From an uncultured Candidatus Saccharibacteria bacterium (lineage in GTDB: Bacteria > Patescibacteriota > Minisyncoccia > Phycocordibacterales > CAIZLB01), in NCBI GenBank assembly GCA_964450605.1, contig CAYVEK010000001.1, positions 8,430-72,429 of the forward strand: 64,000 bases of DNA, written 5' to 3'. Shown here piece after piece: positions 21,687-63,249 of the stretch. The notes below the pieces were generated by a model. That model was not told the DNA's origin. It made no database searches and saw nothing but the letters and a program-made list of their open reading frames with translations. Within the stretch, counting starts at the first letter, position 1; every line of letters starts with the position of its first letter. The position numbers and the translations under genes are program-made.

Positions 21687-22244
21687 TTATTTCTTTTTTT
21701 CAATCACCAAAGCCGGTCCTTTAGGTCCTTTTTTGATGGGAACAGATATTCGATAATCTACTGATATAAGGTTAAGGTATTTTTGAAGCTTTTCCTGTAA
21801 AAAGGCATCATCGAGGATGAATTTTGATCGTCCTGAGATAAATAGCTCTACTTTTACCTGATTGCCTTCTTCGAGCCATTCTGAGGCTTTTTTAGCCTTC
21901 ATAGATAGGTCGTTTTCTCCAGTACCTATCTTTATCTGAATATTCTTAATCTCAACGACTCGGGCAGTAGCTTTTGAGGCTTTCTGCTTCTTGTTCTCGT
22001 CATACTGAAATTTACCATAATCCTGGATTTTTGCAACAGGCGGGTTGGCATTTGGAGATATCTCTATAAGGTCAAGGCCGGCCTCTTCGGCAAGGGCTCG
22101 GGCAGCAGAATTGCTCATCACACCGAGATTATTGCCTTCAGCGTCGATAACTCGTAGTTCAGGCGCTTTTATATAGTGGTTTATATTGATTCGAGGGGTA
22201 TTATTTCGGGGATTGTTGTAGGAGTTGTTGTATGGTTGAGCCAA
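21687..22244 (-). CDS. infC: translation initiation factor IF-3
   Basis: IF3 N- and C-domain similarity (LRVIDAEGNNLGVMS...; KVELFISGR...); true start may be a non-ATG codon. Confidence 0.9.
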   Translation of the reverse strand: MAQPYNNSYNNPRNNTPRININHYIKAPELRVIDAEGNNLGVMSNSAARALAEEAGLDLIEISPNANPPVAKIQDYGKFQYDENKKQKASKATARVVEIKNIQIKIGTGENDLSMKAKKASEWLEEGNQVKVELFISGRSKFILDDAFLQEKLQKYLNLISVDYRISVPIKKGPKGPALVIEKKK

Positions 22245-22565
22245 GGTTTTTGTGTGTTTTGCTTAAATTATCTTTGTTTTTATAGGGATATTGTAGCAGG
22301 GGGATGGGGATGTGGCAAGGGGGTTAGATGATTATGTAAATGTTTTCAGGCCAGTGAATCATTACGATGATATTGACATATTGGATAATTATGATATGCA
22401 ATATATAATATAGAGTACATTGAAATTTTGCGAGATCACCGTAGCTACAAGCTGTCTAATTCCTAGACATTTTCTAGCTACGGTGACACAGGTTATCCTC
22501 TGGCAAATCACAATCATAGGACACGTTCAAAAGAACACGTCCACATCCAATAGAACAAACACGTC

Positions 22566-23168
22566 ATGGCTGACACGTCTGAAATGATTAGTCTCCCGCA
22601 GGCCCTCGAACTCGCGCATGCGCTTCTGCGCAACGGTTGGAAGCCAGCCGATGTGAAGTGGCTCAGCGTTGGCGAACGCCTCGCAGCGGTCCTTCCTCTG
22701 GTGCGAGGAACGGCTGAGATCAAGATCGTCAAACATCTGATTGATCTTGCAGTCGATCCCTTCGTTCCCGACAGTTGCAAAGGCGTCGAGCATCACGAAA
22801 AAGGCGCCACAGACTTCGAATGGGATCCGGCCAAGGTTCGCCTCCATATCTCCGAGAACCAGAAAGACAGCAAGAAGGTCGAAGGTAACGAGCTCCGCAA
22901 GGAGCTCGCTAAAGAAATGTCGTTCAATGCCAACCTTCTGGACTACCTCCTGAAGAATCCGCACCTCATTCCCGAGGAGTGGAAGAAAGATGAGGCGGGC
23001 AACACCCGCTACATCTACATCTACTTCTGGGGGACGATCTACCGCGGCTCCGATGACTACCAGTGTGTCCGCTACCTCTACTGGAATGGTACGGAGTGGG
23101 ACTGGGACGTCGATTGGCTCGACAGTCATTGGGAATCAAGCTACCCTGCTGCTTGTCTCGCAAAGTAG
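22566..23168 (+). CDS. hypothetical protein (200 aa) encoded on a GC-rich island; Trp/Tyr/Asp-rich C-terminus
   Basis: Clean 603-nt ORF with GC3-rich codon usage (CGC/CTC/GAG) unlike its flanks; about 55% GC against about 38%; own terminator downstream; no family recognised. Confidence 0.55.
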   Translation: MADTSEMISLPQALELAHALLRNGWKPADVKWLSVGERLAAVLPLVRGTAEIKIVKHLIDLAVDPFVPDSCKGVEHHEKGATDFEWDPAKVRLHISENQKDSKKVEGNELRKELAKEMSFNANLLDYLLKNPHLIPEEWKKDEAGNTRYIYIYFWGTIYRGSDDYQCVRYLYWNGTEWDWDVDWLDSHWESSYPAACLAK

Positions 23169-23425: not shown

Positions 23426-24499
23426 TTACAAAACCCCCTTAAACACTCCAACAATCTTTTCCAAAAACTTATCCCACAAACTTCGATTTAACCACTCGGC
23501 GTATTTTACAGTTTCTGAATTTTCATGAAGTTTCGCTATGTCTTTTTTTACAGTTTCAACAGTTATATCATCTCGCACAAAAACTCCATTTTCAAAGTTG
23601 TATCGAAGTGAGATATTGTCGAGGTTTAGACTTCCTATAAAAACAGTATCGTCCAGTATGGATACTTTTGCATGTAACATGTCTCTACAAAGGTGAATAC
23701 GTACTCCTTGTTTTAATAGTTTTGTAAAATATGTCCGAGCTGCTATATCAACCGTTCGATAGTCGGTATTTTGAGGAAGGTATATATCAACTTCAACCCC
23801 TTTTCTTTTTGCGCGTAAAATTTCAGATACAAATTGTCTACCAGGTACAAAATACGGAGCGATGAGAGTTATGCTTCGAGTTGCTGATTTTAGTAGTTTC
23901 AAATACGTATAATATATGTGACGTGCTCGCAAAAGAGGGGCTTGATATGCGTATTGATGCGTATGAAGTGGGTCAAGACTGTAAGAAAACTTTTTTTCAT
24001 GATGAAAACGAATACTTCGTCTCTTTGCATATCGAAGCATGTTTTTAAAATCAGCTACTGCTCGGTGTATCACATGCTCATTTGTAATAGGTAGGTTTGC
24101 ATCAATCCAGTTTTGTGTTTTATTTCCTATGCACCATCCTCCCATGTACACAATCTTATTATCTATGATAAGCGATCGTTTATGATTGCGAAAAAACCAT
24201 GAGCGTTTGTTTTTGAAGCTCCAAGGAGTGAGCCAGTTAAAATATTCTATATGAACTCCAGCAGTTGTTGCATTTTTTTCTTCGCGACTACCGCTCAAGT
24301 CTCGTGCACCGAGTGCGTCGAAAAGACAGTGTACTTTAACTCCATGTGAAGCTTTATGTGCGAGAGCTTTTATAAAACTTTTGCCGATTTCGTCGTTGTC
24401 AAAATAAAACGTCTGAAAAAATATTTCATGTTCTGCCTGCTGTATTGCAGAGAGGAGTTCGTCTACGATATCAGATGTTTTTTTGACAATAGGGTTCAT
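23426..24499 (-). CDS. phospholipase D / cardiolipin synthase-like protein (two HKD-type motifs)
   Basis: Second motif LHAKVSILDD...IGSLNLD (HxKxxxxD...GSxN); first motif degenerate (NHKRSLIIDN). Confidence 0.65.
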   Translation of the reverse strand: MNPIVKKTSDIVDELLSAIQQAEHEIFFQTFYFDNDEIGKSFIKALAHKASHGVKVHCLFDALGARDLSGSREEKNATTAGVHIEYFNWLTPWSFKNKRSWFFRNHKRSLIIDNKIVYMGGWCIGNKTQNWIDANLPITNEHVIHRAVADFKNMLRYAKRRSIRFHHEKKFSYSLDPLHTHQYAYQAPLLRARHIYYTYLKLLKSATRSITLIAPYFVPGRQFVSEILRAKRKGVEVDIYLPQNTDYRTVDIAARTYFTKLLKQGVRIHLCRDMLHAKVSILDDTVFIGSLNLDNISLRYNFENGVFVRDDITVETVKKDIAKLHENSETVKYAEWLNRSLWDKFLEKIVGVFKGVL

Positions 24500-38579: not shown

Positions 38580-39719
38580 ATGTGTTTTACTTGTTGTGTG
38601 AATCCACAAGTAATACAAGACGTACATACATTTTTAGAAAGTTTGTTCGAACAAGCTGTGTCTTTAGGTGCGTCTGATATACATATAGATCCACATGAGC
38701 AAACTGTTCATATACGTATGCGTGTTTCAGGAATGTTGCATGAACATAAAACTATTTCAAAAAATAGATTTGATATATGTATAGGAAAGATAAAAGTTTT
38801 GTCTTCACTTCGATCGGATGTGCACGACAGAACTCAGGACGGAAGATTTTATTTTACTGCCAAGTCAGGAGAACGTATTGATATGCGAGTGTCTATTGCT
38901 CCAACTTTTTTTGGAGAAAATTGCGTATTGAGGCTTTTGCGCTCTCATAATAGAAAAAGAAAAAGCTTTTTTGAGTTGGGTATGACAGAGGTTCAGACGT
39001 ATCACTTAAAACAGGCTTTATCAAAAAGTTCAGGACTTGTCATAGTTGCTGGTCCTACGGGGTCTGGTAAGACGAGTACGTTGTATTCTGTGTTGCAGTA
39101 TTTATCGACCGGCATAGATGACGACATAGCCAACCTGGAAGAACATATGGTGACTGATAAAAACATAGTCACAATAGAAGATCCTGTAGAGTCAGTTGTT
39201 TCTAAGACCAGACAGATACAAGTTTCTCCTGATACAGGCTTTGGTTTTAAAGAAGCGTTAAAAGGTATATTAAGACAGGACCCTGATGTTGTTATGATAG
39301 GTGAGATACGAGACAAAGACACAGCACTTGCAGCTATACAAACAGCACTAACAGGCCATCTTGTTTTAACAACTATACATGCTCCAAATGCTTCATCGAT
39401 TATTCCAAGACTTATAGATATGGGTATAGAACCATACCTCATCTCGTCATCTGTGTCACTTATATTGAGTCAACGTTTAGTTAGAGTTTTTGATTATAAT
39501 CTTGGTTTGTATGGAGATCGGGTTGGAGTGTTTGAGATAGTTCCAGTTGATGTCTCTATGAGAGAGCTTATTCATCAAAGAAAAACACCATATGAGATCG
39601 AAAAACATATCTCTGATTCAGGTCATGTTCTTTTACGTGATGCTTGTAGAGATATATATTCCAGACACGTAACAACTGAAGAAGAGATTAACAGGATTAA
39701 CTTAGATATTTTTTTATGA
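38580..39719 (+). CDS. type II secretion / type IV pilus assembly ATPase (GspE/PilB/ComGA-like)
   Basis: Walker A VAGPTGSGKTST and GspE N-terminus (ASDIHIDPHEQTVHIRMRVSGML). Confidence 0.75.
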   Translation: MCFTCCVNPQVIQDVHTFLESLFEQAVSLGASDIHIDPHEQTVHIRMRVSGMLHEHKTISKNRFDICIGKIKVLSSLRSDVHDRTQDGRFYFTAKSGERIDMRVSIAPTFFGENCVLRLLRSHNRKRKSFFELGMTEVQTYHLKQALSKSSGLVIVAGPTGSGKTSTLYSVLQYLSTGIDDDIANLEEHMVTDKNIVTIEDPVESVVSKTRQIQVSPDTGFGFKEALKGILRQDPDVVMIGEIRDKDTALAAIQTALTGHLVLTTIHAPNASSIIPRLIDMGIEPYLISSSVSLILSQRLVRVFDYNLGLYGDRVGVFEIVPVDVSMRELIHQRKTPYEIEKHISDSGHVLLRDACRDIYSRHVTTEEEINRINLDIFL

Positions 39720-40762
39720 AAACTATAAAACACATGCAAACACGATCACTGTGGTACAAAAAGATATTTTTCTATCTCAAGTCGGGCCAATCAGTTGCTG
39801 ATGCCTTAAAAAACTCTAATACTGATCGGTATATAGAAGATATAACAAAAAAAGTTTTATCAGGTGAAAAGCTGAGTACTGCGTGTGTGTCTTGTAAAGA
39901 CGATATTTTCACGTCAACGGAGGTGTCACTTATACAGACAGCAGAATATACAGGAACACTACAAAAAGTATCTATATTTTTGAGTGATGTGTTAAAAAAC
40001 TGGTATACACAAAAACAAAAACTTTTTACTATGGCTATATATCCGTGTGTTGTTCTATTGCTTACGGTGGGACTACTCGTGGGTATACTTGGATTTATTG
40101 TTCCTAAAATAAAACCTTTGTTTTCAGATTTGCCACATATACCATTTACAACAAAACTATTGATGTGGGGCAGTGACATGTTTCTTTCATATTGGTCTAC
40201 TGGACTTTTGATGTGTATAGTTTTTTTGCTTATACACGTATCCATATCAAAACATCGTGTATATGAGGCATATCTAAAAAAGATAAAAACATATATTCTT
40301 TTACATACACCGTATATAAAAGATGTATATATATTTTGGAATATAGATAGGTGGACGCATGTTTTTTCTATCTGCCTCGAAAATAACATATCACTTGAGC
40401 AGTCTTTTTCTTTAGCGACGCAGACTATTGAAAATGAATACATTAAAGCATCTTTTTTGAAATCTCTCACTAAAATACAACAAGGTGTGCCGTGCTCAGA
40501 TTCATTGTCAGAACTTCCGGACACTATATATAAAAATATAAAAGATTGGTACTCGGTTATACGTTCAGGAGAATCATCATCTTCACTTAAAGATGTATTC
40601 AATGTGTTCTATGTCTATATGCACGAACAGTTAACTGGTCTGTTTGAAAAAACTCAAAAATACATAGAACCCGCACTTATACTCGGTATAGGTGGAATAG
40701 TTCTCCTTGTCGCAGTATCAATCATATTACCCATGTACCAACTAACCCAATCAATACAATGA
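39716..40762 (+). CDS. type II secretion system F-family platform protein (PilC/ComGB-like)
   Basis: 348-aa polytopic membrane protein immediately after the ATPase with 4-nt overlap. Confidence 0.6.
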   Translation: MKTIKHMQTRSLWYKKIFFYLKSGQSVADALKNSNTDRYIEDITKKVLSGEKLSTACVSCKDDIFTSTEVSLIQTAEYTGTLQKVSIFLSDVLKNWYTQKQKLFTMAIYPCVVLLLTVGLLVGILGFIVPKIKPLFSDLPHIPFTTKLLMWGSDMFLSYWSTGLLMCIVFLLIHVSISKHRVYEAYLKKIKTYILLHTPYIKDVYIFWNIDRWTHVFSICLENNISLEQSFSLATQTIENEYIKASFLKSLTKIQQGVPCSDSLSELPDTIYKNIKDWYSVIRSGESSSSLKDVFNVFYVYMHEQLTGLFEKTQKYIEPALILGIGGIVLLVAVSIILPMYQLTQSIQ

Positions 40763-41928
40763 ACTCAAGAGGATTTTCTTTAATAGAGATTGTTGTAGCG
40801 TTGGCAGTTTTTCTGATCACAACTGTATCAGTTTTATCTTTTTATGATAAAACTTTTTCTAACGCTGAATCTGTTGTGTTTAAACCTTTACAGCTTCTAC
40901 CACAAGCTCTTTCAGAGTATTCGTATGAAAAAAAAGTTTGCCCTGAAAATAGTTTAAACAATGAAGTAAAAGAGATATCTCTGTCTTCTTATATTTCAAC
41001 CTCAACCCGACTTACTGGAATCTTTATAAATAACAACAGACAATTAATCATAACAACAGACTCAGCTTCGACTACTGAAGCAGATGTTTTTATCTTTGAT
41101 ATTGATGAATCATATAACCTATTTTTGGTTAGCAAACTCGATGTCGGTCCTGGTATAACCTCTGCTCGATATATTAGTGATATCTTATATGTGTTAAATA
41201 CAAGCGTATCTTCTCATATAAAATCATTCAAAATATCTCAAAACTCTATCCAGCAAATCTCCTCATTAAAAATACCATCACTCGCTACAAGTTATTCACT
41301 TCCCAAAACGATACTTGTTCGACAAGGAAAAATATTTATAGGCTCAGAAAAAAATAGTGGTGGTGGGGAATTATTTATTTTATCATTCGATTTTAAAACA
41401 GGAGTCATAACATCAATCGACCGAGAGATAGAGATTGGTGGGCAAGTAAATGCTATTGAAAATTATGGTTCGTATATGGTAGTTGCTACAGCCGGAGACC
41501 CAGAACTCAGAATCTTTGATGAACAGGGTGTGTTAGTTAGTTCTTATGATGCTGATCTTGCTCTTGGGAATGGTAAAAGTGTTTTTACACTATATCCGTA
41601 TATGGTGCTCGGCAGAACTATAGGTAGTGGAGAATTGCATGTTTTTAATTTTAAAAATAGTTCAACGACGGAACTTCTTTCTACCGACAGGTTGCACGGA
41701 ACAGCTGATGCTATGGTGAAAACCGATCTCGATAATATATTTGTTTTTACATCAAATACAGAAAAGGAGTTGCAAGTTTGGTCGTATAAAGATATCAATA
41801 AAACCGGAATCCTTCATCATAAATCCGACATTGATTTACCGAACAGAATATCAGCATTTACATGTGATGTATCACATCTATATATAGCTCTAACTCAAAA
41901 TGATTTACCATATGTATACATCAAATAA
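40759..41928 (+). CDS. large pseudopilin-like protein with prepilin-type N-terminus (389 aa)
   Basis: N-terminus MNSRG/FSLIEIVVALAVF (class III signal, Glu at +5). Confidence 0.6.
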   Translation: MNSRGFSLIEIVVALAVFLITTVSVLSFYDKTFSNAESVVFKPLQLLPQALSEYSYEKKVCPENSLNNEVKEISLSSYISTSTRLTGIFINNNRQLIITTDSASTTEADVFIFDIDESYNLFLVSKLDVGPGITSARYISDILYVLNTSVSSHIKSFKISQNSIQQISSLKIPSLATSYSLPKTILVRQGKIFIGSEKNSGGGELFILSFDFKTGVITSIDREIEIGGQVNAIENYGSYMVVATAGDPELRIFDEQGVLVSSYDADLALGNGKSVFTLYPYMVLGRTIGSGELHVFNFKNSSTTELLSTDRLHGTADAMVKTDLDNIFVFTSNTEKELQVWSYKDINKTGILHHKSDIDLPNRISAFTCDVSHLYIALTQNDLPYVYIK

Positions 41929-48706: not shown

Positions 48707-48734
48707 ATATACTATGTTATCAAATAAAAAACTT

Positions 48735-49157
48735 TTAACCTAAAACAGAACCCCAACCAAAGAAGGCAAAGCATCCTCCAACACCGATAATTGCTAAGGT
48801 TAATAATACTAAAAAAATAGTTCCGAGTACTCCTGCCACACCACGGTGGTATGGTTTAAATCCGGAAGGATTTATAGAGGCTAGTTTATTTTGTAATAAA
48901 TGCGCAGTTGAATTTTTCGAAGATATTTGTATAGAGCCTACTAGAAATAATACCAGTCCAAGAGTGAGGGGGATAAGTCCAACAATCAACGCACTTTCTT
49001 TATCAACCAATAAACTGCAAAGTCCTGCGCCAACAAGCATAAAGAAAAGACCTGCAAGCATAACCCTGTTTGCACTTTGTTTTTTCTGAGTAACTAGATT
49101 TAGTTTCTTTTGAAGATCTTGTGTTTGAGATGTATTTAAATTTGGTTCTATTTCCAT
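48735..49157 (-). CDS. small membrane protein, paralog A (141 aa from ATG 49157)
   Basis: C-terminus ...INPSGFKPYHRGVAG...IIGVGGCFAFFGWG; the track's longer ORF (GTG 49238) would read through the rSAM terminator. Confidence 0.5.
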   Translation of the reverse strand: MEIEPNLNTSQTQDLQKKLNLVTQKKQSANRVMLAGLFFMLVGAGLCSLLVDKESALIVGLIPLTLGLVLFLVGSIQISSKNSTAHLLQNKLASINPSGFKPYHRGVAGVLGTIFLVLLTLAIIGVGGCFAFFGWGSVLG

Positions 49158-49173
49158 ATAGTAAAAGTTTAGC

Positions 49174-49212
49174 AAATAAAAAGTCGCCGGACCAGGTAAA
49201 CTGGTCCGGCGA
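49174..49212 (-). terminator. intrinsic terminator of the radical-SAM gene
   Basis: CGCCGGACCAG-uuuac-CUGGUCCGGCG, 11-bp perfect stem (49185-95 / 49201-11), then UUUUUAUUU on the minus strand. Confidence 0.65.
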
Positions 49213-49237
49213 TTCGTTGATGAGGTAGACGGTTGCA

Positions 49238-50671
49238 CTAAAGCATCAAATCCGACAGACCGTTATAGAACTCACAAAACGAGTCCAAACGACCATCTTC
49301 TCCCATGACGGCTGTACAACATCTGTCTGTACGGTTACAGCTCCAGTTGTGGGCCGGACCACCAAATGTCATGAAGGGTTTTATCGATAGTCTGAACGCT
49401 TGAAGCGCATCCTCCATACTTACATGCATCGATCCGGCTTCGGTAGTCTCGCAACCGCAGAGGTGAACATCTTCTTGGTCGTAATTTATCCTGTCGGCCA
49501 AGAATGATGTTAGGGGCAAGCGCTCAGCAAGAGGCATGTCTCTGACCATACAGGTTACAGTCTTCCGATTTATCCAACCAATATGTTGACAGTTTGGATC
49601 TCCGCAAGGGAGCGGGAATATGCTGTTTTCATCCAGCACGCCATTCGCCTGATGAATCAGGTGGTTTATGACGTGTCCGGAGTCTACAAGTGCGGAGAAT
49701 TCTCCGTCAATTCTTCCTCCGCCGAAACGAGGCTGGTAGTTGACCCCTTTGACCACTGGGCATGACATGCCCAACAGGGCCACTTTCCACAAGTCGCAAA
49801 GGTTTTCGTGTACCACTGTCATGGCTAGTGTGGTGGACACACCTGTGGTCGGTAATTTTTCCAGGACTCTGAGTTCGTGGGTATGGAAGTTGCCCCCGGC
49901 AAGCACGCCTTGTGCCGGCGTTGATGGTCCGTTGAATTTGAGGTAGATGTGCACTTTGCGAAGATTCGCGATGGCTTTTAACTGTTCCGCAAAGTTGGCG
50001 TCCAACAACTTTGTTCCGTTGGTGTTGACCATCACCACGTGGATGTCTGGATTTTCCTGACACCATGTGAGTATGTCAAAGAATTGAGGATGAAGAGTTG
50101 GTTCACCTCCAGACAGCTGGAGGATTTCGATATAACCCCTCTTGTTTAGCAGTTTTTGAATCCTCGACTTTACTTCGTCTAAGGGAATAAAGGTGACATC
50201 GCCACCTCCTGCTTTGGGCGAAGCGGCCAAACATGTGGGACAACTCCAGTTGCAGGAACGCACTATCTCCAACAAGACAACGCAAGGGCTGAGTTTGTCG
50301 AAGTGGTCACCTTGTCCAACTTGCGGATCTTCCATAGTGGCATTTTTGCCAAGTGTAGATACTGCTGCATCGTCGCTGGACCTGCAGGCACAGGTTGCTC
50401 CGCAGGCTCCATCAGTAGGCTCTGCTTTGTAGAAAAAACGAGCGTCTGACATGACAATCGTTTGTGCGATGTGTTGGCATGCTGTGCAGGCAAATTGCAT
50501 ACGGATACGCTCTGGTTGTCTGTCTTCAAAAACCCCGCTGTACATGTAGCGAGAGGGTCCAAGAGGATCTTTTTCTTCAGATGCTGGGACTTTGACCCAG
50601 GTGGCAGATGTGCGCACCCTGCAGTTCGGACATACGGTAAAACCGCGAGAAATGATAGGGTAAGTTTGCAT
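49238..50671 (-). CDS. radical SAM enzyme (SPASM/twitch-like) with N-terminal Cys4 zinc-ribbon/rubredoxin-like module, on a GC-rich island
   Basis: CNWSCPTC (CxxxCxxC); SGGEPTL SAM-binding motif; VMVNTNGTKL; N-terminal CPNC...CTAC; C-terminal CGDPNC...C, CGCETT, CNRTDRCC clusters; about 52% GC. Confidence 0.8.
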   Translation of the reverse strand: MQTYPIISRGFTVCPNCRVRTSATWVKVPASEEKDPLGPSRYMYSGVFEDRQPERIRMQFACTACQHIAQTIVMSDARFFYKAEPTDGACGATCACRSSDDAAVSTLGKNATMEDPQVGQGDHFDKLSPCVVLLEIVRSCNWSCPTCLAASPKAGGGDVTFIPLDEVKSRIQKLLNKRGYIEILQLSGGEPTLHPQFFDILTWCQENPDIHVVMVNTNGTKLLDANFAEQLKAIANLRKVHIYLKFNGPSTPAQGVLAGGNFHTHELRVLEKLPTTGVSTTLAMTVVHENLCDLWKVALLGMSCPVVKGVNYQPRFGGGRIDGEFSALVDSGHVINHLIHQANGVLDENSIFPLPCGDPNCQHIGWINRKTVTCMVRDMPLAERLPLTSFLADRINYDQEDVHLCGCETTEAGSMHVSMEDALQAFRLSIKPFMTFGGPAHNWSCNRTDRCCTAVMGEDGRLDSFCEFYNGLSDLML

Positions 50672-50728
50672 GGTAGTGGTGATTGTTAAAGTTCTTGTTG
50701 TTTCGGTAGCAAACCTAGCCTATCACAC

Positions 50729-51466
50729 CTACACCTTCCTCATCAATCGAAGCAGACTTACTCCGTACCCTAAAACTACTATCGCACTTGTCCACTGAAT
50801 AGCAGTTAATCCTCCAATGAGTGGATGTACTGGTTTAATAAATTCAACAAAAAATCTAAAACCAAAATATCCTACAGCAAAAAGTCTAAAAAATATTCCA
50901 CTACCTACCAGATCACTTCTTTTTTTCATAAATAAACTTAGGCCAATCCATAAAAAGCCAACAACAAGTATTTCGTATAAAGATGTTGGATGTCGAAGTA
51001 GTCCATCTCCTTGATCCATGGCCCAAGGAAGAGAAGAAACAAGGCCAACAGTTTGATCTCTTACACCAACAAGAAAACAGCCAATGCGTCCGATAATTAC
51101 ACCAAGGGCAATCGGTCCAACCATAATGTCTCCGACAGAAGTTTTAATTTTTAAAAACTTTTTTACAATCTCTATTCCTAGTATTCCTCCGGCAATACCA
51201 CCAGCAACAGTCTTAACCGCATAATAGTACATCCAATGTGGAGGATTGAAAAATAATTCAGGACGCTCAAGCGCTGCTATAAGTCGGGAACCTATAAGTG
51301 CTCCAGCTGCAGCACCAATAAGAAGGATGGTTTTTTGTGATACGGATGATTCACTTGAATTCACTTTTTTATAGATACGAGAATAATACCAAGCGGGAAT
51401 AAGTAGAGAAAAAGTATCTGTTAAAAAATGAACCCATAATGGAGCATGGCCGGGGGTAAATAACAT
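50729..51466 (-). CDS. lgt: prolipoprotein diacylglyceryl transferase
   Basis: GRIGCF and LRHPTSLYE Lgt signatures; 245 aa polytopic. Confidence 0.8.
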   Translation of the reverse strand: MLFTPGHAPLWVHFLTDTFSLLIPAWYYSRIYKKVNSSESSVSQKTILLIGAAAGALIGSRLIAALERPELFFNPPHWMYYYAVKTVAGGIAGGILGIEIVKKFLKIKTSVGDIMVGPIALGVIIGRIGCFLVGVRDQTVGLVSSLPWAMDQGDGLLRHPTSLYEILVVGFLWIGLSLFMKKRSDLVGSGIFFRLFAVGYFGFRFFVEFIKPVHPLIGGLTAIQWTSAIVVLGYGVSLLRLMRKV

Positions 51467-51541: not shown

Positions 51542-52396
51542 ATGGATTCAGAAAGATTAGCTGAAAAGATAGATAGAGCAGAAAACTCACTTCCTCAGAC
51601 AAAAGAAGATGTGCTTGGTTTTATACACCGACGTGTGCATCGACTTGAACAACTTGGTGGAGAAAAAGCAGTTGAGGCGGTTATTAAAAAATTAGATCAA
51701 AAATTTGATTGTAGGAAAACTCCTGAAGGTTTTCAATATATACATGATGGAGAGGTTAGATATGAGATAAAGGGTGAGATTCTTTCTTTTAAAGATATAC
51801 AGAGAAATCCTGAGGTTGATAGTGCCACCAGTCTTCTTTGGGATAGAATAAAGGGTCTTAAACAACATATGGAAAATATTGTTTTTATAAAAAATCCAGT
51901 TATAGTTTTTCCTGGACAGGAGATTAGTATTTCTGACCATGACTACAAGTCAACATACATATTTTATGAAATCAATGATTTAAATTATCAACAACATGAT
52001 AAAGCCTTAAGTTTGTATGTAGATACTGCTCATGTTGCAAAGGCAGATATAAATGAAGATTATGTGTTAATAAGCCTTCCAACTGCTGTAGACAGTATTT
52101 TAAATCTATTCATGATACTACATGAAATAGGTCACTCACGTATTACGGATCAAGATTCTTCAACTTTTAGTTCTGCTGAAGTCCGACCGATCTATGGAAA
52201 GGTTCAGCGTGGAGAAAATGTAAATCCGGCAGAGGCTGGTGTAGTTCTTGAACATGAAAGATTAGCGAATGATTTTGCAAAACGTGTAATCGCGGGAGAA
52301 TTCTATGATCTGGTCAGTGAAGAAGATCTTATGTGTTTAGAAGCTTACAATGAAAGTAGTTACGCACAAGGGTTGTATTCGCAATTATCTGCGTAA
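51542..52396 (+). CDS. hypothetical protein with HExxH motif (possible zinc metallopeptidase-like)
   Basis: LFMILHEIGHSRI motif; otherwise unrecognised. Confidence 0.4.
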   Translation: MDSERLAEKIDRAENSLPQTKEDVLGFIHRRVHRLEQLGGEKAVEAVIKKLDQKFDCRKTPEGFQYIHDGEVRYEIKGEILSFKDIQRNPEVDSATSLLWDRIKGLKQHMENIVFIKNPVIVFPGQEISISDHDYKSTYIFYEINDLNYQQHDKALSLYVDTAHVAKADINEDYVLISLPTAVDSILNLFMILHEIGHSRITDQDSSTFSSAEVRPIYGKVQRGENVNPAEAGVVLEHERLANDFAKRVIAGEFYDLVSEEDLMCLEAYNESSYAQGLYSQLSA

Positions 52397-57969: not shown

Positions 57970-59049
57970 ATGTGGTCTCCAATTCAACTTATGAACTCAA
58001 CATCAGCAGCGGTTTTCCGTCTTGTTGTTTTGGTCTTGATGATCCTGTTCACAGCAGGGGCCTCAAAGGCTGAGACCTACAAAGCGGTTGTTACCGATTT
58101 TAGCTTGAGTTTTAATCCGCCGGATCCTCTAGATCCATTCAAGAACTCAAGTTCTAACCTGCACATGACGGACATGTCGCAGGTTTCGGCCGAAACGACG
58201 GTGTACTTCTCCGTTCGTTTTCGGTTTCTCGGGGATACTTCGGGCCAGTGGCTCTCTGTGAGTCAGCCGAACTTTCCCGGCAGTAACTCCTTCACGATGA
58301 TGGGTCAGAAGGAGCAGGGTGGTGGTGTACGCTACCCAAACGGTCTCGGAGGTGCTCAAAACATCTCTATTGCGGGTTCGGTCTACACTGGCTACGACTA
58401 TCCGAAGAATCCAAATCCTACAACAGGTGGGGCGTGGATCTACGGCAAAGACGTCGCGGGGAATATCGTCACCCCAACCGGGAGTCCGATCAAGGATCCT
58501 GGTGCCGTGCCGTTCAATGGCGGGGCCTATATGGTCAACTCTAACCCCAATCTTCGGGTATACGAGTTTTCCGTTATCGGAGCCCGTCGGAAGTTCGGCT
58601 CGTCGTTTGTGTCAGGGGTTAATAACCTCAGGGCTCAAGCCGCCCTGACCGGCGCTAAGTTCAACCTCTTTGTTGACGTGACAAGCAGTATTGGGGTCGA
58701 CTCGGTACTAGGCCCGACAGAAGGGTGCAAGTGCTATCTTCAGTATCCTGAGTGGTTGCGCTTCCCAACGATCTATGTCGGCGATCAGTTTGGTCCGGTC
58801 AAACTCGACCTTCAAATACTGTCGGTTGGAAATTTCCTGATCAAAAATGGTCGCTTGTCGACCATGATCCTGCAAAGGTCGGGAGATCTTCGTAACTGGT
58901 ACACAGTACCAGCGGTCGATTACTCGATCTCAAATCTGGTCAACGGCGACACCGCCCTGACCATGATCGGATTAGGAAGTCAAACCACTCACCTGTCCAT
59001 CCCTCCGCAGGACGGGCCAAACTGCTTCTACCGCCTCGCGTACCCATAA
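57970..59049 (+). CDS. hypothetical secreted protein (359 aa) on a GC-rich island
   Basis: GC3-rich codon usage; signal peptide (AAVFRLVVLVLMILFTAGASKA); Gly/Asn/Pro-rich; no family recognised. Confidence 0.55.
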   Translation: MWSPIQLMNSTSAAVFRLVVLVLMILFTAGASKAETYKAVVTDFSLSFNPPDPLDPFKNSSSNLHMTDMSQVSAETTVYFSVRFRFLGDTSGQWLSVSQPNFPGSNSFTMMGQKEQGGGVRYPNGLGGAQNISIAGSVYTGYDYPKNPNPTTGGAWIYGKDVAGNIVTPTGSPIKDPGAVPFNGGAYMVNSNPNLRVYEFSVIGARRKFGSSFVSGVNNLRAQAALTGAKFNLFVDVTSSIGVDSVLGPTEGCKCYLQYPEWLRFPTIYVGDQFGPVKLDLQILSVGNFLIKNGRLSTMILQRSGDLRNWYTVPAVDYSISNLVNGDTALTMIGLGSQTTHLSIPPQDGPNCFYRLAYP

Positions 59050-59178: not shown

Positions 59179-60564
59179 CTAGTTTATATAGATACCTACT
59201 GTCTGTGAGTTATCACTTTCATTTGATTCACTTACGTTGTTGTATGAATCGAGTTGTATTGAGAGTGTTTGATTTCCTCGTATAAGATCTGTCAGATCAA
59301 AATATACGATTTGTTCTCCACCTGCTTGTATAGGTCCGTTTGATGAAGAGAACTCTCGATATCCACTTCCGATATTTTGTACTCCAAGACGTGTGGTCCA
59401 TGAGTTGTTAAAATATCCTCCAGTGTTTCGAACTCGTACTCGCACAGAAACTCGTTCACCGTATGGTATAGAAGTACTCTGGTAAAATGATCCACCGATC
59501 ATTCGTCCAACTTCCACACTTGATATCATCAAGTTAGGGTTTCCGTTGTTATAGTCGTAGTTGTAAGAGTTTCCACAGTTATACCATCCGTAGATGTGAC
59601 TGTAACACTGGTTTTGATACGGATAGTAGTTGTTGTAGTTGTTATTATTGTATCCGTTACAGTATCTATTTCCGTATGAGTCTGTATAACATCCAGAATC
59701 GTATGGATAATTGTAGTTATTGTTATAGTTTGTATTTCGAATATTTCTTAGCTCAACATTTAACACGTTGTCAGATTCATTTGTTTCTCGTATAGAGTTT
59801 TCTGGATCTGCTTGTATCTGCACGACAGGTGTACCTCTTGAAGTATCTATTCCTGTAAATCGAGCTTCCGCTGTATATGAACTTTCACCTGGAATAGTTG
59901 AAAGATTTGTCATATTTTTAAGTCTGTCATTTGTATCTATGGCAGGCATTGTAACTCGAAGAGTCCATGGGCCCGTAGCTCCAGCTTCTTCATTTAAGAT
60001 TTTGAATCGAACAGACACTGTATCATTTGTATTAAATGTATTTGTCTGAACAAATTGACCTGTACTATCTATAATACCAACTGATGAAAGAGTTAGTTTT
60101 ATATTTTTACTTAGTGGTACATATGTCGGTGTAGTTGTTCTAGGTAAGACATAAGATGTGTAATCTGTCTCGTATACATACTTAACAGGGGTTACAGTTT
60201 TCTTTGTTGTTGTTTTTACAGTAGATGTGTTTACTTTATTTGGATTTGTTACCTGTGCGGGAGTGTTTACATATGTTGTATCTACATCATCTGCTTTTGT
60301 GTCAGTTGAGTTGTTAGAGTTATCTGGTTGAATAACAACACCATTCAAACCATTTGCAGTTGGTGCAACTGGCTGGGAAGTGGTTGTATCAGCAGACTTG
60401 TTTGCAGTTTTTTCGTCGGTTAAACCTCCGATAGAAACTGTTGCAGAGGCCAGGTTATTTATAGCTTTAGGTATAAGATTAAAAATCTTCATACTAATGA
60501 ATACCAAAAGTATAACCAAGATCAAAATAAGGCCTACTCGTAGAATTGTTCGTAAAATATTCAT
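59179..60564 (-). CDS. membrane-anchored surface protein with two CARDB-like domains and an Asn/Tyr-rich low-complexity linker
   Basis: N-terminal TM; two ...NESDN... domain ends (ETNESDNVLNVEL; ESNESDNSQTVGIYIN) typical of CARDB; N/Y-rich stretch NYNNNYNYPYDSGCY...NNNNYNNYYPYQNQCY. Confidence 0.55.
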   Translation of the reverse strand: MNILRTILRVGLILILVILLVFISMKIFNLIPKAINNLASATVSIGGLTDEKTANKSADTTTSQPVAPTANGLNGVVIQPDNSNNSTDTKADDVDTTYVNTPAQVTNPNKVNTSTVKTTTKKTVTPVKYVYETDYTSYVLPRTTTPTYVPLSKNIKLTLSSVGIIDSTGQFVQTNTFNTNDTVSVRFKILNEEAGATGPWTLRVTMPAIDTNDRLKNMTNLSTIPGESSYTAEARFTGIDTSRGTPVVQIQADPENSIRETNESDNVLNVELRNIRNTNYNNNYNYPYDSGCYTDSYGNRYCNGYNNNNYNNYYPYQNQCYSHIYGWYNCGNSYNYDYNNGNPNLMISSVEVGRMIGGSFYQSTSIPYGERVSVRVRVRNTGGYFNNSWTTRLGVQNIGSGYREFSSSNGPIQAGGEQIVYFDLTDLIRGNQTLSIQLDSYNNVSESNESDNSQTVGIYIN

Positions 60565-60643
60565 AATGCTTGTATTATATAGCTTTTTTAACTGTTTGTC
60601 AAGTTATACAAAGTGCTATAATACCCCCGTAGAAAAGACACCT

Positions 60644-61324
60644 ATGGCAACAGAAATATTCAGCGCTGACGAGAAAAAATTCATTAAAAAGCTTATAAAA
60701 TGGGGCTTAATTATTGTTGTAGCCATAGCCGTACTTTCTGGTCTGTCTCAGGTAATAAATGTCTATCAAACAGAAGGTTCTGCAGGGTTAAAAAGACTTG
60801 TTACAGACGGAGAAGACCTTGCAACGCTTCAAGCTGTAAATGGCGGTAAAAAGGTAGAGTCTATAGTAGGTATTCAGTCAAATACAGGAGAACTTCCATT
60901 GTCCATAGAAGTTCCATCACTAGGTATTCAATCAAATATACAATCACCAGTAGTTCAAACTGTAAAAGTGCTAGATGACGCTCTTAATAGAGGTCCTGTA
61001 TACTATCAAGGATCCGGAACACCGGGTGAAAGAAATATGCTTGTGTTTGGTCACAGTACCGGCTTTAGTATTGTTCGAAATAAAGCATATCAAGTATTTA
61101 ATAATATAAAGAAAGCTCAGGTGGGTTCATACATATATATAAGGACGACAAGCGGTGTTCATACATACAAAACGGTAAATGTACGTCGAGCCAGCAAGTA
61201 CAGTACGTGGGTTGATTTTAATAGCTCAAAACCTATGTTGACATTAGCCACATGTGATAGCTTTGGTAAGGCTTCCGACCGTTGGGTACTCGAGGCAGAG
61301 TATATAGGTTTTGAGAAACGATAA
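60644..61324 (+). CDS. sortase-family transpeptidase
   Basis: N-terminal TM; catalytic His (LVFGHSTG), TLxTC motif (LTLATCDS) and Arg (RWVLEAEY); start trimmed to ATG 60644. Confidence 0.7.
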   Translation: MATEIFSADEKKFIKKLIKWGLIIVVAIAVLSGLSQVINVYQTEGSAGLKRLVTDGEDLATLQAVNGGKKVESIVGIQSNTGELPLSIEVPSLGIQSNIQSPVVQTVKVLDDALNRGPVYYQGSGTPGERNMLVFGHSTGFSIVRNKAYQVFNNIKKAQVGSYIYIRTTSGVHTYKTVNVRRASKYSTWVDFNSSKPMLTLATCDSFGKASDRWVLEAEYIGFEKR

Positions 61325-62088: not shown

Positions 62089-62169
62089 ATAAATGTTCTT
62101 TGCGAACTCGAAAATATCCGCCAAAAAGCGGGTATTTTTGTTTGTGAATATGTGCTATATTCAAGTCAC

Positions 62170-63249
62170 ATGTTTCAAAAGATTTTTCAGAAATTCATAC
62201 AAAGCAGAAAGGGTGGAAAAGCTGGTCCCGGCATCGGTATTGATCTTGGTACAACAAACACACTCGTATATATAGAAGATAGGGGTGTGGTTATCGACGA
62301 ACCATCAGTTGTTGCTTTAAATCAAAAAACAAATCAGGTGGTTGCTGTAGGAAATCAGGCTAAGATTATGCTCGGTAAAACTCCCGGACACATAGCTGCA
62401 ATACGGCCGCTGGTTGACGGTGTTATCTCTGACTTTGAAGTTACTGAAGAGATGCTTGCATATATATTAAGAAAGACTATGGAAGTTCTTAAAGCATCTT
62501 CGATACCTCGTGTTGTTATTGGTGTACCATTTGGAGTTACAAACGTGGAACGACGAGCTGTTCGTGATGCAGCTGCAAGTGCTGGAGCTAAAGAAATATA
62601 TATCATCGAAGAACCTATGGCTGCCGCTGTTGGAGTAGGTCTTCCTATAAAAGAAGCGCGAGGGAGTATGATTGTTGATATTGGTGGAGGTACTACAGAT
62701 ATCGCCGTGATATCTCTTGGAGGAATAGTTCGGGGTAAAAACTTAAAAGTAGCAGGTGATAGATTTAATACTGATATTATTTCGTATATTAGAAATGAAT
62801 TTAAACTTTTGATAGGAGAAAAAACTGCTGAGCAGATAAAGATAGAACTATCAAATGTAATGCCTGGAAACCCTCCTGCAGAAGCTGCTGTGCGTGGTCG
62901 TGATCTTGTAACTGGTTTGCCTAAAGAAATATTTGTAACAGAAGAAGATATACATGACGCGATACATTTATCAGCCGACTCATTGTTTGAAGCTGTTAAA
63001 GAAGTTCTTGAGTCAACTCCACCAGAGATACTTGCAGATATTATGACAAATGGTATTTATCTATCTGGAGGAGGTGCTTTGATCAAGAATCTCGATGCCG
63101 CATTTACGGAATATTTAGGTATCAAGGTTAAGGTTGCTCACGACCCTCTAACGGCTGTTGCTCGAGGTGCTGGTATGATCGCTGGCGATATGGATACATA
63201 TCGTGATTTAATAATAGAAAATGAAGATGAACTTCCTATCAGGCGTTAA
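62170..63249 (+). CDS. mreB: rod shape-determining protein MreB
   Basis: Actin-fold motifs GIDLGTTNT, DIGGGTTD and overall MreB similarity; the track starts at 62152, MFQKIF start at 62170 preferred. Confidence 0.9.
   Translation: MFQKIFQKFIQSRKGGKAGPGIGIDLGTTNTLVYIEDRGVVIDEPSVVALNQKTNQVVAVGNQAKIMLGKTPGHIAAIRPLVDGVISDFEVTEEMLAYILRKTMEVLKASSIPRVVIGVPFGVTNVERRAVRDAAASAGAKEIYIIEEPMAAAVGVGLPIKEARGSMIVDIGGGTTDIAVISLGGIVRGKNLKVAGDRFNTDIISYIRNEFKLLIGEKTAEQIKIELSNVMPGNPPAEAAVRGRDLVTGLPKEIFVTEEDIHDAIHLSADSLFEAVKEVLESTPPEILADIMTNGIYLSGGGALIKNLDAAFTEYLGIKVKVAHDPLTAVARGAGMIAGDMDTYRDLIIENEDELPIRR

Follow-up and report, generated by a model that had tools for sequence, protein, structure and literature searches.

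In a 64,000-nucleotide stretch of contig CAYVEK010000001.1 from an uncultured Candidatus Saccharibacteria bacterium (assembly GCA_964450605.1; the whole stretch is referred to as the window), a GC-rich segment carries a single gene for a radical S-adenosylmethionine enzyme (rSAM), located between an Lgt-family gene and two genes for small membrane proteins. This rSAM is the core of a minimal and widely conserved three-part membrane cassette, in which it is combined with a dedicated Lgt paralog and one to four small proteins ending in a conserved Cys motif. By analogy with the enzymes that it resembles, we see an even chance that the rSAM and the Lgt paralog together form a system that cross-links lipid on these Cys-tailed proteins.

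The pairing of the rSAM with this Lgt paralog was found in more than 120 loci, distributed over Verrucomicrobiota, the Candidate Phyla Radiation (CPR), other lineages, and contigs labelled as DPANN (Diapherotrites, Parvarchaeota, Aenigmarchaeota, Nanoarchaeota and Nanohaloarchaeota). Relatives of the window rSAM that are 48–56% identical to it (from Pacebacteria metagenome-assembled genomes and metagenome contigs) display the same order, i.e., Lgt-like gene, rSAM gene and small protein gene(s), within differing outer flanks, and Verrucomicrobiota homologs of ~40% identity have an Lgt-family gene of 241–251 amino acids (aa) and small proteins of 93–108 aa beside the rSAM. In a search of genomes with an rSAM profile, a same-strand Lgt-like open reading frame (ORF) was located nearby in 69 of the 80 loci, the exceptions being mostly short contigs. 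These 80 loci stem mostly from Verrucomicrobiota, including the cultured Roseibacillus, Haloferula and Verrucomicrobium sp., with some from Parcubacteria and Planctomycetota. The reverse search with an Lgt-like profile revealed an rSAM within 2.5 kb in 24 of the 27 metagenome loci that offered at least 2.6 kb on both sides of the Lgt-like gene. Moreover, all-versus-all clustering of the neighbours in 134 loci yielded two broadly recurrent families only (in 122 and 99 loci, respectively), and no conserved protease, transporter, LspA or immunity gene was present among these neighbours. A fourth conserved cassette gene was considered, and none emerged from this clustering.

Two of the DPANN-labelled contigs, assigned to Pacearchaeota (L178:3268-5692) and Woesearchaeota (L179:5633-8152), carry an Lgt-like gene followed by an rSAM gene and a Cys-tailed small protein gene, and the neighbours in L179 are of the Cbf5 and LonB types. 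The cassette thus appears to cross the domain boundary, unless these DPANN bins are mislabelled. Some loci include genes of lipid metabolism: in L007 the rSAM and Lgt-like genes are separated by a ketoacyl synthase and a TetR regulator (L007:8001-9239), L010 has a polyprenyl synthase as a neighbour (L010:2513-4267), and L178 a phospholipase D (PLD)-type enzyme (L178:8465-9937), although such neighbours are not conserved across loci. Since CPR metagenomes commonly carry the cassette, the remark in the initial annotation of the window that an enzyme of this kind would be unexpected in a reduced genome was overstated.

The rSAM is encoded on the minus strand from an ATG start codon, and its assignment as a radical SAM enzyme was borne out by a match to PF04055 (Radical_SAM; 55.3 bits vs. 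a cutoff of 29.5). All of the motifs quoted earlier from the translation (CNWSCPTC, SGGEPTL, VMVNTNGTKL, the N-terminal CPNC...CTAC pair and the C-terminal Cys clusters) were present. Its Cys residues comprise the ribbon C14, C17, C62 and C65, a triad C90/C94/C96, the radical SAM cluster C140/C144/C147, the family-specific C356/C361 and C405/C407, and C451/C452/C466 of a cluster motif near the C-terminus. Among 57 homologs, C140-X3-C144-X2-C147 and SGGEPT are invariant, while C90 and C96 are kept in at least 90% of homologs. No in-frame TGA or selenocysteine codon was found in the gene.

The closest structure in the PDB is by far that of the archaeal tetraether synthase GDGT-MAS (7TOL), which was the top match both with the single sequence (E-value of 8.9e-18) and with the family profile (E-value of 4.1e-46). 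An AlphaFold2 model of the rSAM (pLDDT 82, pTM 0.87) matched 7TOL over its full length via Foldseek (E-value of 5.2e-23, template modelling (TM) scores of 0.69/0.67, 529 aligned columns), followed by the peptide maturase SkfB, which matched over the core only (E-value of 1.7e-9, TM 0.38). The likeness to GDGT-MAS/Tes (MJ0619 and MA_1486; structures 7TOL and 7TOM; NCBIfam model NF045702) extends to the four-domain fold, an N-terminal rubredoxin-type ribbon, the CX3CX2C motif, the GGEPT SAM motif, and a C-terminal RCC...FC cluster motif. The N-terminal Cys4 ribbon proposed earlier was modelled confidently as a beta-ribbon metal site and is homologous to the GDGT-MAS rubredoxin domain, and of the two enzyme kinds originally put forward (i.e., peptide maturases and lipid-tailoring enzymes) the tetraether-synthase-like option is the right one, given that GDGT-MAS is the nearest structure by a wide margin. 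The label "SPASM-like", on the other hand, was rejected, since neither SPASM (PF13186) nor twitch gave a Pfam match even at E-values up to 10, the NCBIfam SPASM and twitch models aligned to the rSAM core alone (about aa 128–300, 22–32 bits), and the domain at the C-terminus belongs to the Tes/TrsS type.

The best NCBIfam model was that of the TrsS (seleno)protein (NF045646), which aligned through the C-terminal domain (aa 128–469) with 112.6 bits vs. a cutoff of 490, and the Tes model (NF045702) aligned over aa 132–372 only, with 74.3 bits vs. a cutoff of 450. Verrucomicrobiota-type homologs scored 203–229 bits on the TrsS model and other cassette rSAMs 300–336 bits over its full length, while the latter reached 258–299 bits on the Tes model, and no sequence that passes the TrsS cutoff was recovered. 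Because all these scores stay below both cutoffs, the Lgt-associated rSAMs form a broad clade beside TrsS and Tes, of which the window rSAM is among the most divergent members. The profile searches thus uphold the radical SAM part of the annotation, but neither its SPASM/twitch part nor membership in the Tes or TrsS equivalog families. In further contrast to GDGT-MAS/Tes, the window rSAM displays 17% identity to it, the ribbon of the window clade bears an insertion of ~20 residues and a CxxC in place of CxxH, and the triad C90/C94/C96, although situated in the equivalent inter-domain segment, does not align with C73/C77/C80 and the His that bind the N-terminal auxiliary [4Fe-4S] cluster of GDGT-MAS. 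Cassette rSAMs also have bacterial or DPANN hosts and are paired with an Lgt paralog and Cys-tailed proteins. In short, the window rSAM is a member of the Tes/GDGT-MAS/TrsS superfamily that shares its fold, and is not an ortholog of Tes or TrsS.

The neighbouring gene, previously called lgt, does encode an Lgt-family protein (PF01790, 86.2 bits vs. a cutoff of 24.9), but not an ordinary one: it scored below every NCBIfam Lgt equivalog cutoff (TIGR00544 and NF000778; 33 vs. 118.9 bits and 39.7 vs. 334 bits), carries altered active-site residues, and is paired with the rSAM. Although single-sequence phmmer against the PDB returned no match, a profile of 17 cassette Lgt-like proteins matched E. 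coli Lgt (5AZB) with an E-value of 1.5e-22, and the AlphaFold2 model of the window protein (pLDDT 90.8) had 5AZB as its sole significant PDB match (E-value of 1.4e-6, TM 0.64). The paralog shares the seven-helix fold of canonical Lgt and keeps the equivalents of E. coli R143, R239, E243, Y235 and G154, whereas the Y26 equivalent is not invariant among cassette members; we take the functional weight of Y26, H103, R143, N146, G154, R239 and E243 in E. coli Lgt to be that known from mutagenesis and structure. Unlike canonical Lgt, the paralog is ~245 rather than 291 aa long and has the rSAM, rather than housekeeping genes, as its genomic partner. The Lgt-like protein is therefore a distinct paralog family tied to the rSAM. 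At the NCBIfam and Pfam level, no curated family is dedicated to this paralog or to the small proteins.

The third component consists of small membrane proteins, which are represented in the window by the paralogs sA (with three predicted helices) and sB. The shared C-terminal tail (IIG[IV]GGC) that had been pointed out in these two proteins is indeed there, and the functional link to the rSAM that had been suggested for them gained strong support by comparison, from the presence of Cys-tailed small proteins beside the rSAM in 77 loci across phyla. By a crude motif test, Cys-tailed small ORFs amount to 8.2% of the nearby same-strand ORFs vs. 1.8% in controls, and a stricter adjacency rule retained 101 of them in those 77 loci (one to four copies per locus). 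The consensus of 97 unique tails starts with a patch of about +1.8 net charge and continues with ~23 uncharged residues and [I/L][G/L][F/G][G/A][G/A/T]-C, with a median of 9 residues after the Cys; position –2 is G or A, and position –1 is G, A or T. In sA, the lipobox-like G-x-C motifs are VGAGLC at the end of helix 1 and IGVGGC at the end of helix 3, the latter 11 residues from the C-terminus, and a second motif copy closing helix 1 (e.g., VGAGLC) is shared within the window clade. Both motif-bearing helices of sA are predicted to run in-to-out and are preceded by K/R-rich segments, so that, by the positive-inside rule, the Cys would be placed at the outer-leaflet end of the helix. The active site of E. 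coli Lgt is likewise on the outer-leaflet side.

In terms of sequence, the small proteins are poorly conserved: no Pfam or NCBIfam family matched them, sA has 5 sequence relatives only among 1.84 billion representatives, and across phyla no sequence homology was detectable, architecture and motif alone being conserved. One subfamily (L114, L129, L132, L136, L137, L144, L157 and L162) has 60–78-aa Cys-tailed proteins directly after the rSAM, with a near-identical tail (...YFLIGGGICG[AS]LL[T/S]) that is far more conserved than the other small proteins. The tails resemble a lipoprotein signal peptide in having a positive n-region, a hydrophobic h-region and a small residue before the Cys. They differ from it in that the motif is C-terminal (in some cases also at helix 1) in small polytopic proteins, with ~9 residues after the Cys, and in that neither a signal peptidase II nor a sortase-like protease is conserved in the cassette. 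MYXO-CTERM, a C-terminal sorting signal, is of a comparable class.

In the mechanism that we propose, the Lgt paralog would take a diacylglyceryl group from phospholipid and attach it to the conserved Cys, where the helix ends at the outer leaflet, and the rSAM would dock at the cytoplasmic face. Its 5′-deoxyadenosyl radicals could then activate the inert terminal carbons of the hydrocarbon tails at the bilayer midplane, as in GDGT-MAS, and couple the tails of the protein-bound lipid with one another or with a lipid of the inner leaflet, which would result in a cross-linked or membrane-spanning lipid anchor. Tail coupling at the midplane is proposed because the chemistry of the superfamily (radical C–H activation at hydrocarbon tail termini and C–C coupling, PMC9433317) coincides here with a presumably cytoplasmic rSAM and a predicted outer-leaflet Cys beside an Lgt-type transferase. 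The rSAM would act on the tail ends and not on the Cys, because a cytoplasmic enzyme is not expected to reach a Cys in the outer leaflet. The more specific and far-reaching form of this proposal, i.e., an unrecognised protein-lipidation system of Verrucomicrobiota, CPR and DPANN in which the Lgt paralog lipidates the C-terminal Cys and a Tes-like rSAM couples the tails through C–C bonds, is tentative and, in our view, rather doubtful.

A number of observations weigh against lipid cross-linking by the cassette. The window rSAM falls short of the TrsS as well as the Tes cutoff, and in its family two residues reported to be fully conserved in 1000 archaeal GDGT-MAS homologs (PMC9433317), the labile cluster ligand Met439 and Tyr459, are replaced by the invariant K431 and V455, respectively (profile alignment to 7TOL, with residues mapped using a chain numbering offset of +20, from C9 = chain C29). 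The segment that joins the core to the C-terminal cluster is about half as long, with about 56 residues vs. about 107 in GDGT-MAS, and there are extra invariant Cys motifs that GDGT-MAS does not have, i.e., PCGDPNC (in an invariant PLPCGDPNC that aligns with PVPSVAPIS of GDGT-MAS) and CGC (within the ~56-residue segment). Because of these replacements, the shortened segment and the extra Cys, the second substrate site may not bind lipid. In the Lgt paralog, an invariant Cys (GRxGC; GRIGC with Cys130 in the window) replaces E. coli N146 and Gly replaces H103, the His of the HGGLIG signature, and the loss of both could mean a different chemistry. Nor does the tail of the small proteins conform to a canonical lipobox, since it is C-terminal and mostly has Phe or Gly, rather than Leu, at position –3, whereas a lipobox reads [LVI][ASTVI][GAS]C behind an N-terminal signal peptide. 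Many cassette hosts, such as Roseibacillus and Haloferula, are aerobes, which is unusual, though conceivable, for oxygen-sensitive rSAM chemistry with multiple clusters. Finally, the pair of Lgt-like and small proteins persists without the rSAM in the two nearest relatives of the window locus (L094 and L097), so that the rSAM is dispensable for the role of this pair; this suggests that the rSAM is a tailoring step.

Some of these features would suit a system resembling those of RiPPs (peptides made by the ribosome and modified after translation), in which the small proteins are precursors, the rSAM modifies the peptide (e.g., by a thioether or C–C cross-link at the Cys or close to it) and the Lgt paralog adds a lipid, the product being either a modified peptide of the membrane or a short lipopeptide from the C-terminus. 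The tandem, fast-evolving small genes with their one invariant Cys and the scarcity of sA relatives are in line with it, as are the extra invariant Cys motifs, the region shortened relative to GDGT-MAS, and the RiPP maturases such as SkfB that come next among the structural matches. We nevertheless deem it unlikely, since SPASM, twitch and RRE domains are all missing, the 134 loci share no conserved protease, transporter or immunity gene, and the fold matches a lipid enzyme over its full length (TM 0.69 vs. 0.38 for SkfB). The predicted topology moreover separates the Cys, at the outer-leaflet end, from an rSAM in the cytoplasm, and instead of short leader–core peptides the cassette has multi-helix membrane proteins of 60–170 aa.

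Homology to GDGT-MAS at the level of sequence, profile and fold could also be taken more literally, with the rSAM as a bacterial Tes/Mss-type synthase of membrane-spanning or macrocyclic phospholipids, the Lgt-like protein either handling those lipids or being a housekeeping Lgt, and the small proteins serving as scaffolds or being unrelated. Bacterial Tes homologs have been proposed (as a proposal only) to make membrane-spanning lipids (PMC8941075, PMC13459092), other cassette rSAMs reach 258–299 bits with the Tes model, and some neighbourhoods contain phospholipase-D/cardiolipin-synthase-like and other lipid genes. The synthesis of free lipids would, however, leave unexplained why, across phyla, the rSAM is strictly paired with Cys-tailed proteins and an Lgt paralog whose active site is altered, and the Tes-invariant Met439 and Tyr459 are not kept. 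Most cassette hosts are not known to produce membrane-spanning lipids. This explanation, too, is improbable in our estimate, and cross-linking of protein-bound lipid remains the reading that we prefer.

The GC-rich island that drew attention to the locus, said to cover one gene plus its terminator, was recovered both in the GC profile and in codon usage. In 300-nt windows, GC content is 0.48–0.53 over about 49250–50750 vs. 0.30–0.39 on either side, within a window of 38% GC overall and with CPR/Patescibacteria-like gene content, whose nearest relatives bear the name Pacebacteria. The rSAM gene itself has a GC content of 0.499 and a third-position GC content (GC3) of 0.521, compared with a GC3 of 0.224 for the Lgt-like gene and 0.241 for pheT, the two small genes having values of 0.262 and 0.169; relative to the 50 other ORFs of the window (mean 0.253, standard deviation 0.043), this corresponds to z = 6.2. 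The excess is distributed over the entire length of the gene and resides chiefly in C-ending codons (third-position C of 0.32 vs. 0.12). An exclusively C-ending signature was considered as a trait of the rSAM and dropped, as relatives do not show it. The terminator hairpin is real, although its perfect stem measures 12 bp instead of the 11 bp reported earlier; the stem has nine G–C pairs, is followed by CUUUUUAUUU, and folds with an energy of –27.2 kcal/mol (z = –5.0). The coordinates of these features are compiled in Table 1.

Table 1. Features of the cassette locus, in window coordinates.
Feature	Position	Strand	Basis or remarks
Radical SAM enzyme, 477 aa, Tes/GDGT-MAS/TrsS superfamily	49238..50671	-	Pfam, NCBIfam, PDB, fold, conserved Cys
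Short Lgt-family paralog, 245 aa	50729..51466	-	PF01790, 5AZB profile and fold, adjacency to rSAM
Small membrane protein sA, 140 aa	48735..49157	-	Ortholog of the single small gene in L094/L097
Small membrane protein sB, 129 aa	48317..48706	-	sA paralog, 29% identity; C-terminal IGIGGC tail
Intrinsic-terminator-like hairpin	49184..49212	-	12-bp stem, 5-nt loop, U-run; directly 3′ of the rSAM stop codon
Window-specific GC-rich segment (leader, rSAM and hairpin)	49184..50705	-	blastn, junction alignments, gene tables; 5′ boundary (~50705) approximate

Comparison with L094 and L097 delineated this segment. Their Lgt-like proteins are 82–83% identical to that of the window and lie in the same PheS-PheT synteny, but the order is Lgt-like gene, one small protein gene and pheT, and precisely the segment of the rSAM gene and the hairpin is missing. 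Immediately past the hairpin, the U-run and the leader of sA show 91% identity to L094. The rSAM gene and its terminator are thus an indel relative to these two loci, and the junction alignment fits gain and loss alike. Because L094 and L097 have a common junction sequence, one event suffices in either direction, and because exactly this segment is missing in the two nearest relatives, a gain in the window lineage is possible. The same comparison revealed that sB is an additional copy, which L094 and L097 do not have. The leader upstream of sB is a repeat of the one before sA, and since both genes have a 14-nt leader in common (TTTTTATTTG[A/C]TAA on the coding strand, at 48717..48730 and 49169..49182, and present in L094 as well), a tandem duplication of gene plus leader fits.

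Foreign composition had been taken as a sign of recent horizontal acquisition, and comparison with relatives does not establish this. The same gene, at the same position and with the same contrast, occurs in L002 and L091–L093, whereas it is missing in L094 and L097. For the five rSAM-bearing members of the window clade, whose rSAMs are 54–70% identical, the paired GC3 values of rSAM and Lgt-like genes are 0.52/0.22, 0.45/0.29, 0.60/0.34, 0.63/0.39 and 0.54/0.30. The GC3 excess is therefore a trait of the rSAM genes of the whole window clade and not proof of recent arrival, and because all five members have it at such divergence, composition alone cannot date the arrival. A strong excess was found at three other CPR loci (L073, L083 and L086), and the DPANN-labelled loci have none. 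The notion that every CPR cassette shows it, which had arisen from 9 loci, was rejected on the basis of 120 rSAM-Lgt pairs, over which the mean difference is small (+0.008 to +0.038), even in AT-rich hosts.

A recently acquired gene from a GC-rich donor, inserted between the Lgt-like gene and the small genes, would account for a GC3 that lies 6.2 standard deviations above the window genes and for the missing of exactly the rSAM gene and hairpin in L094 and L097. The window rSAM is, moreover, ~10 identity points more diverged from its clade than would be predicted from its Lgt partner, a mild argument for acceleration or lateral replacement, and the same 64 kb holds another two GC-rich islands of a single gene each. 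Yet the distant clade members L002 and L091–L093 have the gene, its position and its GC3 excess, no rSAM donor closer than 56% identity was found among 5.8 billion proteins, and the locus is devoid of flanking direct or inverted repeats of note, mobility genes and nearby tRNA genes. The window copy does not have the raised G-ending Lys, Glu and Gln codons of the other two islands, and the junction motif common to L094 and L097 fits a single loss equally. Taken together, we rate recent acquisition as somewhat less probable than its opposite. An artificial origin, in which a GC-rich fragment of another organism was mis-joined into the AT-rich contig, would agree with the sharp compositional boundary, but the same gene order and contrast recur in at least 4 independent assemblies of relatives, the boundary falls exactly at the terminator and at a leader shared with L094, and the identical rSAM protein is on record from two sources. 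Chimerism is hereby effectively excluded.

With regard to the layout of the locus, the mechanically called ORF at 48735..49238 is too long and runs through the terminator. Because the hairpin falls inside this ORF, the first small gene was taken to start at the ATG at 49157, and the resulting 140-aa protein is matched exactly by the database protein P0243. Upstream of the Lgt-like gene, a plus-strand ORF (51542..52396) encodes a hypothetical protein of 284 aa that matched neither Pfam nor NCBIfam. It is missing in L097, where the Lgt-like gene abuts a gene for a ~1050-aa surface protein, which implies a second indel at the locus.

The rSAM gene is not the sole GC island, since two further single-gene islands were found in the window, at about 22.5–23.2 kb and at 57970..59049. 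The latter (plus strand) is a 359-aa ORF beside gyrB with a GC content of 0.525 and a GC3 of 0.61, in which C- and G-ending codons are both elevated; the protein matched nothing in Pfam and carries a hydrophobic signal-like segment at its N-terminus, and with a single relative (85% identical) among 5.8 billion proteins it constitutes an orphan GC-rich island. The former (22527..23168, GC content of 0.55) is located between the minus-strand genes for initiation factor 3 (21687..22244) and a PLD-like protein (23426..24499), and has a 200-aa ORF on either strand, both of them without a Pfam match. Elsewhere in the window, genes for a type IV pilus ATPase, platform and pilins, a sortase and MreB (38580..41928, 60380..61324 and 62152..63249) represent typical CPR surface equipment, and are without connection to the rSAM cassette.

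Bacterial Tes homologs are known and uncharacterised (PMC8941075, PMC11868695, PMC13459092), and the cassette rSAM family is probably counted among them already. By description, Mss and these homologs are similar to the cassette enzyme in being radical SAM enzymes proposed to couple bacterial fatty-acid tails; their literature, as far as it was searched, differs in that it associates them with neither an Lgt paralog nor small proteins with a Cys tail. No paper was found that ties either of these partners to a radical SAM/Tes homolog, in a search that did not include the paper defining TrsS, so that some prior recognition of a related neighbourhood is possible. The triad of Lgt paralog, rSAM and small protein is thus apparently undescribed.

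Hundreds of such bacterial Tes homologs have been catalogued and are used in the debate on the sources of branched glycerol dialkyl glycerol tetraethers as palaeoclimate biomarkers, their functions not having been demonstrated. A large clade of them is not free-standing, but tied to an Lgt paralog with an altered site and to Cys-tailed proteins, and counts of Tes homologs should therefore not stand as evidence for tetraether production. The locus likewise provides a cautionary case against GC islands as proof of recent horizontal gene transfer. Radical tail-coupling on a protein-bound lipid is a hypothesis that can be tested in cultured hosts such as Haloferula, Roseibacillus and Verrucomicrobium sp.; if true, it would constitute the first radical-SAM-tailored lipoprotein, and the first role for the large clade of bacterial Tes homologs that is unrelated to free tetraether lipids. 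Finally, since CPR and DPANN organisms are thought to scavenge lipids, a lipid-remodelling cassette would bear on how they build their membranes.

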